Below are positions 2,147-64,000 of a stretch of 64,000 nucleotides of DNA, piece after piece. The stretch comes from an uncultured Eubacteriales bacterium. GTDB lineage: Bacteria; Bacillota; Clostridia; Christensenellales; CAG-138. A model generated the notes under the pieces. It searched no databases. It was not told where the DNA came from and saw only the letters and a list, made by a program, of their open reading frames with translations. Position 1 is the first letter of the stretch. Each line of letters begins with the position of its first letter. A program made the position numbers and the translations under genes. The stretch is taken from the NCBI GenBank assembly GCA_900319345.1, contig ONNZ01000008.1, positions 14,057 to 78,056 on the forward strand, given 5' to 3'.

Positions 2147-2225
2147 CATCTTCTTGGGCTTCTCTTTTTTCGGTCCCTTTTTCCTCTTCACCTGAAGAGA
2201 AAAAAGGGACAAAAGAAGAAAGTTA
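2147..2225. repeat. AG/CT-rich hairpin repeat family, solo copy A
   Basis: Hairpin 2173-2210: gtccctttttcctcttc-acct-gaagagaaaaaagggac. The left flank cttcttgggcttctcttttttcg and right flank aaaagaagaaagTTA match copies C and D. The right end abuts the prfA stop codon. Confidence 0.75.
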
Positions 2226-24724: not shown

Positions 24725-25588
24725 ATGCTCACCTTTACCAACCAGGCCGCCCTGTCCTACCGGAACCGGGTGCGCTATTCCAATCTGACCACGGGCCAGA
24801 TCGCCGACGCCCTCACCGTTTCCAAGTCCGCCCTCTCCGGCACCTACGAGGCCGACGGGGACGTGACCTACGTGGTGCGCCTCGATAACAACGGCGCCGC
24901 GCCCCTGACGGACCTAAGTCTCACCGACGATCTCGGTGGCTACGCCTTCGACCAGACCACCGTCTACCCCCTCAGCTACCGAGCGGATTCCCTGCACTAC
25001 TACGTGAACGGCGTGGAGCAGCCCGCCCCCACCGTGACCCCCGGCGCGCCGCTGATCGTCTCCGGCATCTCGGTGCCCGCGGGCGGGAACGCGCTCCTGG
25101 TCTACGAGGCGACGGTGACCGAGTTCGCCTCCCCCGCCGAGGAGGGCAGCATCACGAATACCGTTACCGCATCCGGCGGCGGGCTCACCGCCCCCGTCAC
25201 CGCCTCCGCCACCATTTCCGCCGCGGCCGGGCCGGAGCTGGCCATCACCAAGGCCCTGACCCCCGAGACCGTGGGCGCGGATCGGCAGGTGACCTACACC
25301 TTCACCATCGAGAACGAGGGCAACGCCGCCACCAGCCCCGAGGATCAGGTGACCGTCACGGACACCTTCGACCCGGCCCTCACCAACCTCACCGTGACTC
25401 TGGACGGGGCGCCCCTCGCCCAGCCCGGCGGCTACACCTATGACGAATCTACCGGCGCCTTCGCCACCGTGCCCGGCATCCTCACCGTCCCTGCCGCCAC
25501 CTACACCCAGGACCCAGCCACCGGCGTCTACACCGCCGAGCCCGGGGAAGCGGTGCTTGTGGTCACGGGAACCATACAGACCAATTGA
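24725..25588 (+). CDS. DUF11 (conserved repeat domain) protein, two tandem Ig-like modules, no signal peptide
   Basis: FTNQAALSYRN... N-terminus; LTVSKSA and LAITKALTPETV module starts; ITNTVTASG. AAGGAGGA RBS. Confidence 0.7.
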   Translation: MLTFTNQAALSYRNRVRYSNLTTGQIADALTVSKSALSGTYEADGDVTYVVRLDNNGAAPLTDLSLTDDLGGYAFDQTTVYPLSYRADSLHYYVNGVEQPAPTVTPGAPLIVSGISVPAGGNALLVYEATVTEFASPAEEGSITNTVTASGGGLTAPVTASATISAAAGPELAITKALTPETVGADRQVTYTFTIENEGNAATSPEDQVTVTDTFDPALTNLTVTLDGAPLAQPGGYTYDESTGAFATVPGILTVPAATYTQDPATGVYTAEPGEAVLVVTGTIQTN

Positions 25589-25590
25589 GT

Positions 25591-25735
25591 TTTCTTTTGC
25601 CGCTTTTTCTTTTCATGAGAAAAGAAAAAGCGGCGGAAAAAGAGAAACTTAAGAAGAAAAGGAGGACTATGCGATGCCATAGCCCTCTTCTTAAGTTCTT
25701 TTGGCGTTCCCTTTTCTTTCAAGAAAGGGGGCGAA
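25591..25735. repeat. AG/CT-rich nested-hairpin repeat family, full copy B
   Basis: Hairpins at 25599-25634 (gccgctttttcttttc-atga-gaaaagaaaaagcggc), 25664-25685 (ggactatg-cgatgc-catagccc) and 25705-25733. The inner flanks are inverted copies (gaaacttaagaaga / tcttcttaagttc). Confidence 0.8.
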
Positions 25736-25847
25736 GCTGAGCGCTGCCTGTGGCAGATGTAGCGAAGCGGAGCACGGGTAAAACAACGAGAAACCAAACA
25801 AAGTGCAGGTTTCGACTATGTTTTGCCCCTGGTCACAAAGCTTTCAT

Positions 25848-28675: not shown

Positions 28676-28840
28676 TTTTTCTTTTACACCTTTTCTCTTT
28701 CTACAAAGAGAAAAGGTGCCCAAAAGAGAAACTTAAAAAGAAAAAAGGCTATGCACGATGACATAGCCTTCTTCTTGAGTTTCTCTTTTTCCGCCGCTTT
28801 TTCTCCTTTGTATAAAGAGAAAAAGCGGCAAGAAAGAAAG
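28676..28840. repeat. AG/CT-rich nested-hairpin repeat family, full copy C (best preserved)
   Basis: Hairpins at 28687-28718 (caccttttctcttt-ctac-aaagagaaaaggtg), 28746-28769 (aggctatg-cacgatga-catagcct) and 28793-28829 (gccgctttttctcctttg-t-ataaagagaaaaagcggc). The right end ...agaaagaaagtTTA abuts the stop codon at 28842. Confidence 0.85.
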
Positions 28841-28841
28841 T

Positions 28842-30128
28842 TTATTCGTCTATCAGCTCGTCCTCGGGTTCGTCCTCGTCCACCCAGGCGGGGTCTTGCT
28901 CGACGAGGAGCCGGAGGACCCGCAGGTTGTTCCGCTTGAGGATGGTGACGGTCAGATCCTCGAAGGTGAAGCTTTCCCTAAGCTTCGGGTACCCCCCCAG
29001 CATCTCCACGGCCCAGCCGCCCACGGTGGCGTTGTCGTCGTCGATCTCCTCCTCGTCCTTGTCGAACTCGGCGAAGAAGTCGTCCAGGCGCATATCCCCG
29101 TCCACCTCGTAGACGTGGGGTTTGATCTCCACGAACTCCTCCTCAATCTCGTCGGACTCGTCCCAGATGTCCCCCACCAGCTGCTCCAGCACGTCCTCCA
29201 TGGTGAGGATGCCCATGGTGCCGCCGTACTCGTCGGTGACCACCGCCATATGCCCCTTCTTCCGGCGCATGGTGTTGAACACATCGTCAAGGGGCATGGT
29301 CTTGTGCACGAAGATGGGCGGCAGGAGGAGCTTTTCGATATCCGCGTCCGGGTCCTTTACCAGGGCCTTGTAGAGGTGGTTGAGGTGGAGGATGCCCACG
29401 ATGTTGTCCAACGTCTCCTGGTACACGGGGATGCGGGTATAGGGGGACGCGAAGGCCACCTTCAGCATCTCCTCCCGGGAGTCGTCGAGGTCGATGGCCA
29501 CCAGGTCCACCCGAGGCGTGATGATCTCGTAGGCCAGCACGTCCCCGAAATCAAGGGCCGATTGCAGCAGGTCCGCCGTGTCCTCGTCCACCACGCCCTC
29601 GTCCTCCACGGTCTCGATGATGGTTTCGAGGTCGTCCTCCGTGACCGCCGGGCCGGAATCCTGCCCCTGCTCCCAGAGCCGGGAGATGAAGTGCAGGAAC
29701 TTCTGGAGGGCCCAGGTCAAGGGCCAGGTGAGCCCCATCCACAGCCGCATGGGCACCGCGGCAATGGCGCTGAACCGCTCGGGCTGGGCGCTGGCGATGA
29801 TCTTCGGGGAGATCTCGCCGAAGGTGATGATGAGCACGGTCATGATGGCGGTGGCCACCCAGGCACCCTTCTCGCCCATGAGCCCCACGGCGATGACCGT
29901 GGCCAGGGACGAGGCGCCGATGTTCACCAGGTTGTTCCCCACCAGGATGGAGATGAGCGCCTTCTCGAACCGCTTCTTTACCCTGAGGGCCAGGGGGTAG
30001 GCCCCGCCCTTGGTCTCGGCGGCGTGTTCGAGCCGCATCTCCTGGGCCGCGGAATAGGCGATCTCGGAGCCGGAAAAGAAGGCGGACAGGACGATGCAGA
30101 CCAGGATCAGCAGCAGGTTCACGATCAT
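28842..30128 (-). CDS. CNNM/HlyC-CorC family transporter (DUF21 + CBS pair + CorC_HlyC)
   Basis: DUF21 TM region (FFSGSEIAY...GEISPK), a CBS pair and a C-terminal CorC_HlyC domain (VDGDMRLDDF...). Confidence 0.88.
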   Translation of the reverse strand: MIVNLLLILVCIVLSAFFSGSEIAYSAAQEMRLEHAAETKGGAYPLALRVKKRFEKALISILVGNNLVNIGASSLATVIAVGLMGEKGAWVATAIMTVLIITFGEISPKIIASAQPERFSAIAAVPMRLWMGLTWPLTWALQKFLHFISRLWEQGQDSGPAVTEDDLETIIETVEDEGVVDEDTADLLQSALDFGDVLAYEIITPRVDLVAIDLDDSREEMLKVAFASPYTRIPVYQETLDNIVGILHLNHLYKALVKDPDADIEKLLLPPIFVHKTMPLDDVFNTMRRKKGHMAVVTDEYGGTMGILTMEDVLEQLVGDIWDESDEIEEEFVEIKPHVYEVDGDMRLDDFFAEFDKDEEEIDDDNATVGGWAVEMLGGYPKLRESFTFEDLTVTILKRNNLRVLRLLVEQDPAWVDEDEPEDELIDE

Positions 30129-44936: not shown

Positions 44937-45012
44937 GGTCAAACCTCCTTGTAGATTCGAGGATAGCTTGCCCGGGCGACGGCCGGTCTATGCGTTTTAT
45001 CGGTATGAACGG

Positions 45013-45170
45013 AAGCTTCTGTGGCTTTTCTTTGTAAAGAAAAGCCACCCAAAAGAAACGCAAAAGGGAAGCACAGCTTATACCGTACTTCCCATTTGAA
45101 TTCTTAAGCTTCTCTTTTTTGGGCACCTTTTTTCTCTTCACCGAAGAGAAAAAAGGTGCAAAAGAAAAGG
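45013..45170. repeat. AG/CT-rich nested-hairpin repeat family, full copy D
   Basis: Hairpins at 45021-45048 (gtggcttttctttg-taaagaaaagccac), 45066-45093 (gggaag...cttccc, followed on the minus strand by TTTTGCGTTTCTTTT) and 45123-45159 (gcaccttttttctcttc-acc-gaagagaaaaaaggtgc). The right end aaaagaaaaggTTA abuts the typA stop. Confidence 0.85.
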
Positions 45171-46920
45171 TTACACCTGTATCCCCCGGGCGGCCAGCTT
45201 CATGCGCTGCTCCTTGGAGAGGACCTTCTTGCGCATGCGGATGCTCTTGGGGGTCACCTCTACCAGTTCGTCGTCCGCGATGAACTCCAAACACTGCTCC
45301 AGGGTGAAGATCACCGGCGGCGTCAGCCGAAGGGCCTCGTCGGAGCCTGCGGCCCGCATGTTGGTCACGTGCTTCTTCTTGCACACGTTGACCACGATGT
45401 CCTCGTCCCGGGCGTTCTCGCCCACGATCTGGCCCTCGTACACCGGGATGCCGGGGCCTACGAACAGGCGGCCCCGATCCTGGGCGTAGAAGAGGCCGTA
45501 GCTACTGGTGTCCCCGGTCTCGTGGGCCACCAGGCTCCCGCTGCTGCGGCTCTCGATGGGCCCCTTGTAGGTGTCGTAGCCCGCGAAGATGTGGCTCATG
45601 ACGCCGTTGCCCTTGGTGTCGGTCAAAAGCTCGCTCCGATAGCCCATGAGGCCCCGGGCGGGGATCATGAACTTCACCCGGGTGCTGAAGTCGCCGATGG
45701 CGGTCATGTCCGTCATCTCGCCCTTGCGGGCCCCCAGCTTCTCCATGACCGGGCCCATGAACTCCGTGGGCACGTCGATGGTCAGTTCCTCCATGGGCTC
45801 CAGCATCTCGCCGTTGGGCCCCTCCTTCATGATGACCTTGGGCCGGGTCACGGCGAATTCATACCCCTCCCGGCGCATGGTCTCGATGAGGATGGACAGG
45901 TGCAGTTCGCCCCGGCCGCTGACCTTGAAGGTGTCGGTGGTCTCGGTCTCCTCCACCCGCATGGACACGTTGGTCTTGACCTCCTTGAAGAGCCGCTCCC
46001 GGATGTTCCGGCTGGTCACGTACCGGCCCTCCCGCCCGGCGAAGGGGCTGTCGTTGACCTTGAAGAGCATGCTGACCGTGGGCTCGTCGATGTGCACGAA
46101 GGGCATGGGCTCCACGCAGGCGGGGTCGCAGGCGGTCTCGCCCACGTTCAGATCCTCAGCGCCGGCCATGCAGAGGATATCCCCCGCGTGGACCTCCTCC
46201 ACCTCCACCCGGTGCAAGCCTTCGAACCGGTACAGCCGGGAGATCTTGGCGGGCCGGACCTTGTTCCCTTCGCCGCCGCAGAGGACGATGCTCTGTCCCC
46301 GCTTCGCCACGCCCCGCTCGATGCGGCCCACGCCGATCTTGCCCACGTAATCGTCGTAGTCGATGGTGGAGAACAGGATCTGCAGCGGCGCGCTGTCGTC
46401 CATGGCGGGGGCCGGGATGGCCTTCAGGATGGTGTCGAAGATGGGCTTCATGCTGTGCTCCAGCTGGTCCAACTCGTAGCCGGACATGCCGTTGCGGGCG
46501 GAGGCGTAGACGATGGGGAAGTCCAGCTGCTCGGCGGTGGCGCCCAGCTCGATGAACAGCTCCAGGGTCTCGTCCACCACCTCGTCGGGGCGGGCGTCGG
46601 GCCGGTCCACCTTGTTGATGACCACCACGGGCACCTTCCCCAGCTCCAACGCCTTCTTCAGCACGAACCGGGTCTGGGGCATGCAGCCCTCGAAGGCGTC
46701 CACCAGCAGCAGCACGCCGTCCACCATCTGCAAAGCTGACGGCGGTGTTCTTGGAGAGGATGGTGATGCCCCGCTCCCGCTCCAGATCCCCGCTGTCCAT
46801 GACGCGGTCCACGCCCACCTCGCTCCGGCGGAGGACGCCGGCGTCCTGCAAAAGATGATCCACCAGGGTGGTCTTGCCGTGGTCGACATGGGCGATGATC
46901 GCAACGTTTCTGATTTCCAT
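45171..46920 (-). pseudogene. typA: typA/bipA translational GTPase disrupted by an internal out-of-frame deletion
   Basis: Frame 1 from ATG 46920 reads [25 protein letters not shown]...[17 protein letters not shown]. Frame 2 resumes at [25 protein letters not shown] (M codon 46727-46725) and runs to the stop at 45171. The roughly 25 aa that normally lie between them (xxINIVDTPGHADFGGEVER) are missing. Confidence 0.8.
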
Positions 46921-62871: not shown

Positions 62872-62930
62872 CTTCGCCTCTGGATCATTCGGATATGCGG
62901 CCCTTGCTGCCTTCCTGATCCTCCCCCGTA

Positions 62931-62985
62931 TGCTTTTCTTTTCTCGATTCCTTTTTCTGTTCGCCGAAAAGAAAAAGGAACATCA
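62931..62985. repeat. AG/CT-rich hairpin repeat family, solo copy E
   Basis: tgcttttcttttctcga flank plus hairpin 62948-62980 (ttcctttttct-gttcgccgaaa-agaaaaaggaa), 18 nt before ATG 62998. Confidence 0.6.
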
Positions 62986-62997
62986 AAGGAGACTTCC

Positions 62998-64000
62998 ATG
63001 AAAAAGATCCTATCGTTCCTGAAAAAAGAGCCCATGCTGGCCGTGTCGCTGCTGGCGGCGGCGGTGGCGCTCGTCATCACCCCGCCTTCGAAGCGGCTCC
63101 TGGCCGACATCGACTGGCGCACGCTGGGCACGCTCCTTATGATGCTGTGCGTGTTGGAGGGCTTTAAGCGGGAGAACGTGCTCAGGCCCCTGGTGGCCCT
63201 GGCGTCCAGTCTGAAGCGGATGACGCTCCTTTCCCTCTTTTTGATCTTCGGCGTGTTCTTCTCCTCCATGTTCGTCACCAACGACGTGTCCCTCATCATC
63301 TTCGTGCCAGTGACCATCCAGCTCTTTCGAGCGGGCGGCAAGGAGCGGTACCTCCTGCCCGTCATCACCATGGAAAACATCGCCGCTGTTCGCGGATCCC
63401 TCCTGACCCCCTTCGGCAGCCCTCAAAACCTGTTCCTCTATAGCCGGTCCGGGGTCAGCGCCGGCCAGTTCATGCTCCACATGCTGCCGTTAGCCGCCAT
63501 GTCCGCGGCGCTGCTCATCGTCTTCGTCCTGACCCTGTACCGAAAGGCTCCCCGGGAGGAGATCGGCGCTGGGAACGCCCTTCCGCCTTGGAAACACGAG
63601 GGACGGACCCGCCGGATCGTGTACCTTGCCCTATTCCTGCTGATCATCGTCGTCATCGTCACCCGTACCGGTCTATGGCCCTTGGCGGTGCTGGCGGTGC
63701 TGCTGGGTATCCTGGCGGTAGATCGAAAGCTCCTCTTCGAGGTGGACTACGTTCTGCTGCTCACCTTCCTGTGCTTCTTCGTGTTCTCTTCCTCTATCGC
63801 CGCCAATGAGCGCATCGCCGGATTCCTGCAACGGGCGGTGGCGCAGCACGAATACTGGTGGGCCATCGGGCTGAGTCAGATCATCTCCAACGTGCCCGCC
63901 ACCATCGTCCTGTACCCCTTCACGGAAAACTTCGCGGGCCTCATATACGGGGCGGACACCGCGGGTCTCTGTTCCCTCATCGGCTCCCTGGCCTCCGTCA
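62998..64000 (+). CDS. ArsB/NhaD-superfamily (citrate transporter-like) anion permease, 5' part (runs off right edge)
   Basis: Absent from the ORF track because it is open at the edge. My translation from ATG 62998 (AAAGGAGA upstream) reads MKKILSFLKKEPMLAVSLLAAAVALVI...NDVSLIIFVPVT...GSPQNLFLY. It is polytopic. Confidence 0.75.
   Translation, partial: MKKILSFLKKEPMLAVSLLAAAVALVITPPSKRLLADIDWRTLGTLLMMLCVLEGFKRENVLRPLVALASSLKRMTLLSLFLIFGVFFSSMFVTNDVSLIIFVPVTIQLFRAGGKERYLLPVITMENIAAVRGSLLTPFGSPQNLFLYSRSGVSAGQFMLHMLPLAAMSAALLIVFVLTLYRKAPREEIGAGNALPPWKHEGRTRRIVYLALFLLIIVVIVTRTGLWPLAVLAVLLGILAVDRKLLFEVDYVLLLTFLCFFVFSSSIAANERIAGFLQRAVAQHEYWWAIGLSQIISNVPATIVLYPFTENFAGLIYGADTAGLCSLIGSLASV

Follow-up and report, generated by a model that had tools for sequence, protein, structure and literature searches.

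Introduction

REP-like repeats are well studied in Proteobacteria and hardly known in Firmicutes; blocking 3′-to-5′ exonucleases is a known role of REP sequences, and the cause of the intactness of such repeats is debated. The REP superfamilies have not been reported from Firmicutes (PMC3733652). Another dispersed repeat, BoxC/PIT/TMECO of E. coli, goes back to Hoyne and Maher (2000, 2002), as cited in the relevant passages of Holder et al (2015; PMC4666352). The criteria for intrastrand triplex formation (ITxF) are three segments of 6–15 nt on the same strand, triplet rules, short loops, and at most one mismatch (PMC4666352). By the definitions given there, the sole nucleic-acid geometry that demands mirror repeats is a triple helix or H-DNA (PMC4666352).

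Here, a repeat family from a genus of uncultured rumen Clostridia is described, which is architecturally closest to REPINs and BIMEs (PMC3116915, PMC2817692) and whose unit most resembles BoxC/PIT/TMECO, the intrastrand-triplex repeat of E. coli (PMC4666352). The starting point was a stretch of 64,000 nt (C45:14057-78056; from here on, the window) of a 2.14-Mb assembly with 61.8% GC in 68 contigs (G000). A first-pass annotation, made from the letters of the window, had not recognized the element among described repeat families, a judgment with which our searches agree: no description of this family was found in the literature, and with Rfam 15, no hit at the gathering score was obtained across the window (at E ≤ 1, just far-sub-threshold look-alikes of miRNA precursors, that is, generic hairpins, were returned).

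Results

A family of structured repeats at gene ends

Each of the five intergenic sites listed in the first-pass annotation carries the element, and a profile search returned exactly these five and none elsewhere in the window (Table 1). The core CTTTTTCTCTT (at most one mismatch) occurs 14 times in the window, compared with 0.41 occurrences expected by chance. The copies are flanked by ordinary genes for housekeeping and transport (prfA, tsaC/Sua5, a DUF11 protein, a two-component pair, CNNM/CorC, typA/bipA, recF, EamA, and CitMHS).

In a full copy, the stop codon of the upstream gene and a T-rich leader of ∼10–15 nt are followed by a long CT/AG hairpin (HP1). The variable hairpin at the center is flanked by a purine arm (GGAAAAAGAGAAAC-TTAAGAAG) on the HP1 side and by a pyrimidine arm (CTTCTTAAAG-TTCTTTTGG) on the side of a second, short CT/AG hairpin (HP3); 3′ of HP3, the conserved tail GCTTTCAATnnTTCC precedes the stop codon of the convergent gene, present as its reverse complement. 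HP1 is made of a 5-bp GC clamp and an 11–12-bp CT/AG stem (16–17 bp in total) with a loop of 2–4 nt, HP3 of a clamp and 7–8 bp (12–13 bp in total); an example of a unit-length sequence is 5′-UUUCUCUUUUUC-C-GCCGC-CUUUUUCUCUUU-AGAC-AAAGAGAAAAAG-GCGGC. The two outer hairpins lie in inverted orientation around the spacer, and the purine and pyrimidine arms pair with each other on both strands, thereby lengthening the central stem. The resulting three-hairpin fold is alike irrespective of the strand (mean MFE −70.6 and −67.1 kcal/mol). Some copies, among them copy C of the window, carry the long hairpin at both ends ("double-long"); here, the inner arm (28769–28792) pairs with 28719–28746 to form the longer central stem. 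The length of full copies, initially given as 145–165 nt, had to be corrected to ∼160–175 nt (150–175 nt at the widest), with conserved sequence running ∼15 nt past the short hairpin (GCTTTCAATnnTTCC). Copies A and E are indeed solo units, as had been proposed; copy A fills the spacer between prfA and tsaC, the stop codon of prfA (reverse complement TTA) being located at 2223–2225.

Examples of the conserved tail are found at 45007–45019 of the window (copy D) and at C17:144949-144965 of the same assembly. Its reverse complement, GGAAGGATTGAAAGC, resembles a Shine-Dalgarno sequence plus TTG and immediately follows the convergent gene's stop codon.

Table 1. Coordinates of the repeat family and of module 2. 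Positions are those of the window unless a contig of the same assembly (G000) is given.
Feature	Position	Strand	Remarks
Copy A, solo HP1 unit	2145–2228	−	
Copy A, hairpin	2173–2210		
Copy A, inner arm	2158–2172		mirrored
Copy B, full element	25585–25746	+	starts 2 nt past the TGA of the DUF11 gene (24725–25588)
Copy B, HP1	25599–25634		
Copy B, purine arm	25635–25657		
Copy B, central hairpin	25662–25687		
Copy B, pyrimidine arm	25688–25704		
Copy B, HP3	25705–25733		imperfect
Copy C, full element, "double-long"	28676–28847	−	HP1 end abuts the TAA of the CNNM/CorC gene (reverse complement TTA, 28842–28844)
Copy C, HP1	28793–28829		GCCGC-TTTTTCTCCTTT / loop GTAT / AAAGAGAAAAAG-CGGC
Copy C, inner arm	28769–28792		TTCTTCTTGAGTTTCTCTTTTTCC on the + strand; mirror image of the adjoining HP1 arm
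Copy C, central hairpin	28747–28768		GGCTATG-cacgatga-CATAGCC; with arms, called terminator-like on the minus strand
Copy C, second outer hairpin	28687–28718		CACCTTTTCTCTTT / CTAC / AAAGAGAAAAGGTG
Copy D, full element	45003–45176	−	3′ of typA/bipA (stop as reverse complement TTA, 45171–45173)
Copy D, HP1	45123–45159		
Copy D, central hairpin	45066–45093		
Copy D, HP3	45021–45048		
Copy E, degenerate solo unit	62904–63005	−	between the EamA and CitMHS transporter genes
Copy E, hairpin	62948–62980		
Module 2	25729–25836	+	separate dispersed repeat of ∼105–110 nt, inserted at the 3′ arm of copy B HP3
Module 2	C25:30806-30940		
Module 2	C23:41664-41781		
Module 2	C44:10155-10267		
Module 2	C62:18014-18122		
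Module 2	C30:6201-6316		
Module 2	C40:19091-19228		
Module 2	C66:47481-47584		

With copies B, C, and D as the seed, an nhmmer profile (one iteration) yielded 216 hits, which were merged into 89 loci in the 2.14-Mb genome, 51 of them at least 135 nt long and 38 partial. The presumed dispersed repeat family is therefore real, its size being well past the five copies of the window. The family makes up 0.54% of the assembly, and the count of loci is probably a lower bound because seven of them lie within 700 nt of contig ends. When genes were called with a dicodon caller, 85 loci had two neighbors: 41 lay between convergent genes, 41 in tandem contexts, and 3 between divergent starts. Orientation in the tandem contexts was random (HP1 first in 21, HP3 first in 20). 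Among all spacers, those between convergent genes were occupied in 36 of 205 cases (17.6%), tandem ones in 47 of 1,340 (3.5%), and divergent ones in 3 of 196 (1.5%; chi-square P = 4e-18), which corresponds to a strong bias toward gene 3′ ends. The abutment to stop codons, first noticed in the window, turned out to be general and to apply to both sides, with stop codons located between approximately −8 and +14 nt from the element ends.

The stems of the outer hairpins are almost free of errors: 102 of 123 are perfect, and 23 mismatches were counted in 1,795 pairs (98.7% Watson-Crick); 37 distinct 5-bp GC clamps close them. The nested three-part architecture with its conserved core and co-varying clamps, as initially described, is thereby substantiated. 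T.G mismatches were found 12 times and C.A mismatches 6 times, a difference that is not significant and by which neither strand is clearly favored. At orthologous sites in other species, the flanks are 92–98% identical and the interiors of the elements 66–88%, and the differences are paired; the clamp GCCGC:GCGGC, for example, is replaced by GCGAC:GTCGC, and GTGGC:GCCAC by GTGCC:GGCAC. Stems of the central hairpins at these sites are conserved while their loops vary freely, and subtypes are exchanged between species at a given site as complete units of hairpin plus arm. Taken together, the paired changes, the conserved stems, and the subtype swaps point to structural selection plus copy-to-copy replacement (gene conversion), and we infer that both act together in keeping the units intact. 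Template-switch correction can keep palindromes perfect without selection, and such correction may contribute to their maintenance as well.

Mirror symmetry of the inner arms

Read outward from the GC clamp, the arm that lies on the inner side of each outer hairpin mirrors the hairpin arm next to it (e.g., AAAGAGAAAAAG-CGGCG-GAAAAAGAGAAA). In 70 long units, mirror identity was 92.6%, compared with 77.8% when arms were permuted between units, 58% when positions were shuffled, and 63.5% when the arm was read as a direct repeat. The short hairpin and the pyrimidine arm are mirrored too (TTTCTTTT/TTTTCTTT, TTCTTTT/TTTTCTT, TTCTTTTT/TTTTTCTT, and TTCTTT/TTTCTT). Mirror identity of the inner arms was 0.882 versus 0.603 for the outer flanks; the null distribution, with offsets re-optimized and clamp boundaries treated uniformly, had a mean of 0.800 (sd 0.007, maximum 0.819), corresponding to z = 11.4. 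Exact mirrors were found in 77 of 123 cases and represent ∼10 distinct non-trivial haplotypes, including private or rare variants with four or six A's or an extra G. Asymmetric elements sacrifice perfect Watson-Crick pairing between the two arms, and each arm stays mirrored to its own hairpin. Other species have these haplotypes as well, again with mirroring on the inner and not on the outer side, which is consistent with the rule and does not count as independent support for it; no new mirrored haplotypes were found in the divergent congeners G010, G011, and G012. To our knowledge, no replication, recombination, or copying process yields mirror repeats. The triplex potential, a passing remark in the first-pass annotation, has thus turned out, on evolutionary grounds, to be the strongest structural signal of the family.

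A formal scan for triplex motifs (pyrimidine segment, loop1 of at most 6, purine segment, loop2 of at most 8, and mirrored purine segment; segments of at least 8 nt with at most one mismatch) identified 68 intrastrand motifs in the genome, all of them inside loci of the family and none elsewhere; 54 of the 89 loci carry at least one. The motifs conform to the rules for intrastrand triplexes; they are typically 12 nt long, and loop2 measures 5–7 nt, which is at or just above the published limit of 6. By the published nomenclature, one of the two units of each element is of class II and the one on the opposite side of class IV, from whichever strand the element is read, class II being the pyrimidine–purine–reverse-Hoogsteen reading and class IV, on the opposite strand, the Hoogsteen–pyrimidine–purine reading. 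The cores consist of 75–85% A, a composition that favors the T.A-T (U.A-U) pyrimidine motif over the purine motif driven by G.G-C (PMC4666352). The mirror symmetry is also compatible with double-stranded H-DNA. For a triplex between an arm and the adjacent hairpin, either the 5-bp GC clamp has to open or a linker of 1–2 nt has to span it, and C+.G-C triples require protonation.

Origin and spread in the genus

Of 16 congeners, 13 carry the family in similar numbers. With copy B as the BLAST query, about 22–52 matches were listed, with up to 134 first-look candidates, across these 13; none were found in congeners G001, G002, and G005, and mere traces outside the genus. A scan for the HP1 unit at the order level was negative in all 250 genomes, which represent 136 other genera. 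The congeners without the element are, by flank identity, also the three most divergent ones, which is in keeping with one acquisition event in the common ancestor of the 13-species clade, followed by settling almost entirely at gene 3′ ends and retention there. At the prfA-tsaC junction, the spacer measures 2 nt in G001 and G005; a full element is found there in G006 and G014, and a truncated solo unit in G000 and G013. Elements are thus insertions, and solo units arise through deletion; copy A, in particular, is a deletion derivative because G006 and G014 have the full element at the very same site.

In syntenic comparisons among element-bearing species, 20 of 20 orthologous sites were occupied (sites A, B, C, D, C24_71800, and C41_27586), without any sign of recent transposition. 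The insertions are old and have been kept at orthologous sites, and current mobility was not seen. Nor was a target-site duplication: the longest word shared by the two boundaries measured 4.72 nt on average, versus 4.54 in the null (sd 0.15), with the boundaries being fuzzy enough for a 2-nt duplication to escape. In the element-free congeners, an ordinary GC-rich bidirectional terminator is located 3′ of the CNNM gene. The typA loci of named genomes were dropped as empty-site controls, synteny being lost beyond the species, and the larger inserts at the typA site of G003 and G006 proved to be ordinary genes for a PLP enzyme and RidA. A weak profile match (E = 2e-7) lies downstream of typA in another genus (L019:2597-2752; uncultured Oscillospiraceae MAG SRP192927_co4_294), where the sequence resembles CT/AG hairpins and "gtcaggctatggcacag" repeats are found close by; this could be a distant or analogous family.

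The first-pass annotation had noted the lack of a transposase or RAYT gene in the window, which was confirmed and extended to the whole genome: RAYT/Y1 (PF01797) is absent from G000 and present in 2 of 17 genus genomes, there without family hairpins nearby, in a search that registered hits in control genomes. TnpB was found in none of the 17. Mobilization by RAYT/IS200 or TnpB was accordingly rejected for lack of association with the family. A stand-alone gene for a DnaQ-like DEDDh exonuclease (G000 C26:15956-16483; L131) lies between an HP1 unit and an HP3 unit (order HP1-arm-gene-arm-HP3), with the HP1 unit in the rare divergent-promoter position. Orthologs of this gene occur in 14 of 14 element-bearing genomes and in 0 of 3 element-free ones, and are flanked by units in three to four species. 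As it is unbracketed in most (10 of 14), the association is most likely a clade effect, and the locus was rejected as an autonomous parent element. No parent element with matching ends was found among the candidates considered (Y1/RAYT, TnpB, and the unit-bracketed C26 gene).

A second dispersed repeat, module 2 (GGGTGCGAAGCYGAGCGCTGCC...GGTTTCGACTATGTTTTGCCC), has 11 copies in the genome and sits in the tips or 3′ arms of family hairpins (e.g., GCGCCCTTTctttca[M2]AAGGGCGC). It is polymorphic between close species: beside copy B, it is present in G000 only, and at C41_27586 it is present in G013 and G014 and not in G000, with GCGAAGC on both sides. Module 2 is confined to element-bearing congeners, has no match in Rfam, and shows a moderate degree of structure (−40.2 kcal/mol, z = −2.07). 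It has the appearance of a recently mobile element with the hairpins of the family as its targets, rather than of a family member. In the region C66:47400-47640 of G000, one module-2 copy is enclosed by two copies of a tRNA-like 3′ half (GGTTGTAGGTTCGAGCCC).

Discussion

We give roughly even chances to the reading that the family is a genus-restricted, non-coding, and non-autonomous REPIN/BIME-like repeat composed of triplex-type units, which would serve as a structural module at the 3′ ends of genes. Transcription from either side would place the element in a 3′-UTR, where it would fold into three AG/CU helices. Its central stem, together with the U-rich 3′ arm, could act as a weak-to-moderate bidirectional terminator, and the U/C-rich arm could occupy the major groove of the neighboring A-rich hairpin via U.A-U and C+.G-C triples. 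Such a compact 3′ structure, with the triple-helix clamp added, would be expected to block 3′-to-5′ exonucleases.

Intrinsic terminators consist of a GC-rich stem-loop and a T/U tract immediately behind it. Under strict criteria, 16 of the 39 full copies qualify in one direction or both, three of them in both; a consensus scan called the central hairpins of copies B and C terminator-like. The designation "mobile terminator" is thus weak for the family at large. In a subfamily of G012, the HP1 unit is indeed paired with a canonical GC-rich terminator. There (L155, L166, and L178), the HP1 unit is followed by TTATGTAA and the terminator GGGGAGCTGC-tttr-GCRGCTCCCC plus a T-tract, downstream of which other short direct repeats, belonging to additional repeat families, are found (cttgcctccaccgttgc; tgtcatttcgaccgagg). 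The terminator calls, the terminator of G012, and the one in the element-free congeners indicate that the units are consistently associated with 3′-UTRs and terminators. One metatranscriptome contig spans unique sequence, HP3, and the central hairpin; assembled RNA contigs break at the repeat. Against a general role in termination speak the location of some copies within operons, for instance prfA-tsaC, where stopping transcription would be harmful, as well as the finding that E. coli BoxC/PIT lacks terminator or promoter activity in vivo, as far as the account in PMC4666352 goes. That the units are natural RNA triple helices at the 3′ ends of bacterial mRNAs, forming a nuclease-resistant 3′ cap, is a tentative and, on present sequence evidence, unlikely proposition. 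If it were true, they would be a bacterial, dispersed-repeat counterpart of the triple-helix stabilizers of the ENE/MALAT1 type in eukaryotes and viruses, backed by three-way covariation.

The family could also be purely selfish, a miniature element resembling MITEs or REPINs without host function, whose fold is the single-stranded DNA shape recognized by a putative, possibly lost, mobilizing enzyme and whose location at 3′ ends merely shows where insertions are tolerated. Its patchiness within the genus (absence from three congeners), the clear insertion relative to element-free species, the high copy number with many truncated solo units, and the swapping of subtypes at the same site are all in line with this notion, and CGTC-type REPs likewise lack a dedicated transposase (PMC3733652). 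However, the hairpins are perfect even where the flanks are only ∼80% identical, which is unexpected of decaying dead elements; neither a target-site duplication nor, in the 20 syntenic comparisons, an insertion polymorphism was observed; the few Y1/RAYT genes of the genus are not flanked by hairpins, TnpB is lacking from its genomes, and the extreme ends of the element are not inverted repeats of each other. On balance, we regard a purely selfish nature as rather unlikely. Decidedly improbable, in our view, is that the element works at the level of DNA, its mirror repeats forming H-DNA and its inverted repeats cruciforms in supercoiled DNA, as a supercoil sink, a site for gyrase or nucleoid proteins (as proposed for BIMEs), or a roadblock to replication or transcription at convergent gene ends. 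A purine tract followed by a 5–7-bp spacer and the mirrored purine tract is the textbook H-DNA motif (PMC4666352), the stem mismatches show no strand asymmetry (G.T versus A.C, 12 versus 6) that would favor a single RNA strand, and enrichment between convergent genes places the element where topology is stressed. Still, two mirror halves suffice for H-DNA, and the tight maintenance of a third segment on the same strand, the other hairpin arm, points to a single-stranded fold; in addition, the positive supercoils at convergent gene ends disfavor extrusion. The E. coli PIT elements can be cited on both sides, as they block DNA polymerase in vitro and have no effect in vivo, according to the summary of that work in PMC4666352.

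That the element is a gene, for either a small protein or a stand-alone small RNA, appears extremely improbable. On the strand with HP3 first, the conserved, Shine-Dalgarno-like GGAAGGA is followed by TTG or ATG, and stop-free frames extend over 36–77 codons; yet, frame and predicted peptide vary from copy to copy, the same columns are translated in all three frames, the indels found in loops and runs are of lengths not divisible by three, and orientation to the neighbors is random (21 versus 20 in tandem contexts). The small ORF on this strand was therefore rejected, its frames being long and neither frame nor peptide conserved. Readings as attC sites, uptake sequences, or promoters were set aside: the copies are dispersed in both orientations, have no R′/R″ cores, and are far too rare for uptake signals.

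The evolutionary signature of the family is clean: it contains three co-varying segments, two of which are Watson-Crick partners and the third a mirror image, a pattern demanded by the geometry of triple helices or H-DNA alone. This renders the long-standing question testable whether bacterial intrastrand triplex motifs fold and act. In practical terms, the family matters for the annotation of rumen Clostridia MAGs, with ∼18% of convergent gene pairs carrying the element, and it exposes a second small element that inserts specifically into its hairpins.

Comparison with known repeat families

Similar to the Correia/NEMIS, ERIC, and pneumococcal BOX and RUP elements (cf. the review PMC2229807), the family is non-autonomous and self-complementary over a long range; those elements are ∼100–170 nt in size, are co-transcribed with flanking genes and can act on termination or stability of the mRNA, and BOX shares the modular construction of the family. 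They differ in having terminal inverted repeats and, usually, duplicated targets (TA or other), whereas no duplication was detectable for the present family, nor any sequence similarity to them. Tested as a MITE, the family lacks terminal inverted repeats: its inverted units are subterminal, and its ends (the T-rich leader and GCTTTCAATnnTTCC) are not inverted repeats.

With REPINs and BIMEs, the family shares palindromic hairpins inverted around a spacer, the whole being a long hairpin, and tens to hundreds of copies (PMC3116915, PMC2817692, PMC3733652). Further shared traits are the location downstream of genes, with ends that often touch or supply stop codons, subfamilies with alternative complementary stem residues, and patchy abundance among related species. 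In contrast to REP palindromes, which carry a GTAG or CGTC tag at one end (PMC3733652), no subfamily has such a tag; a T-rich leader and the purine arm are found instead. Its stems are longer (12–17 bp versus 5–13 bp) and homopyrimidine/homopurine rather than GC-rich, no RAYT gene is flanked by the repeats, and the mirrored third segment has no counterpart in REPs. Moreover, the host is a Firmicute, whereas REPINs and BIMEs are known from Proteobacteria and Cyanobacteria. The initial proposal of a REP/BIME-like element is thus apt for the inverted hairpin doublet and the gene-end position, and fails for the tag and the association with RAYT.

What the family has in common with E. coli BoxC/PIT/TMECO, to the extent that the latter is portrayed in PMC4666352, is that both are dispersed intergenic repeats with three same-strand segments obeying the rules for intrastrand triplexes, that a class II motif entails a pyrimidine-motif class on the complementary strand, that some units form inverted pairs, and that the surrounding intergenic sequence is variable. 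According to the same portrayal (PMC4666352), the E. coli motif is rich in G/T and G/C (driven by G.G-C) and has ∼23 copies and short stems. The present family, on the other hand, has A-rich cores (T.A-T type) of 11–13 triplets with a base-paired GC clamp as the second "loop," and is embedded in a composite palindrome that is tightly linked to stop codons. The natural mirror covariation over ∼10 haplotypes is a new result of this family.
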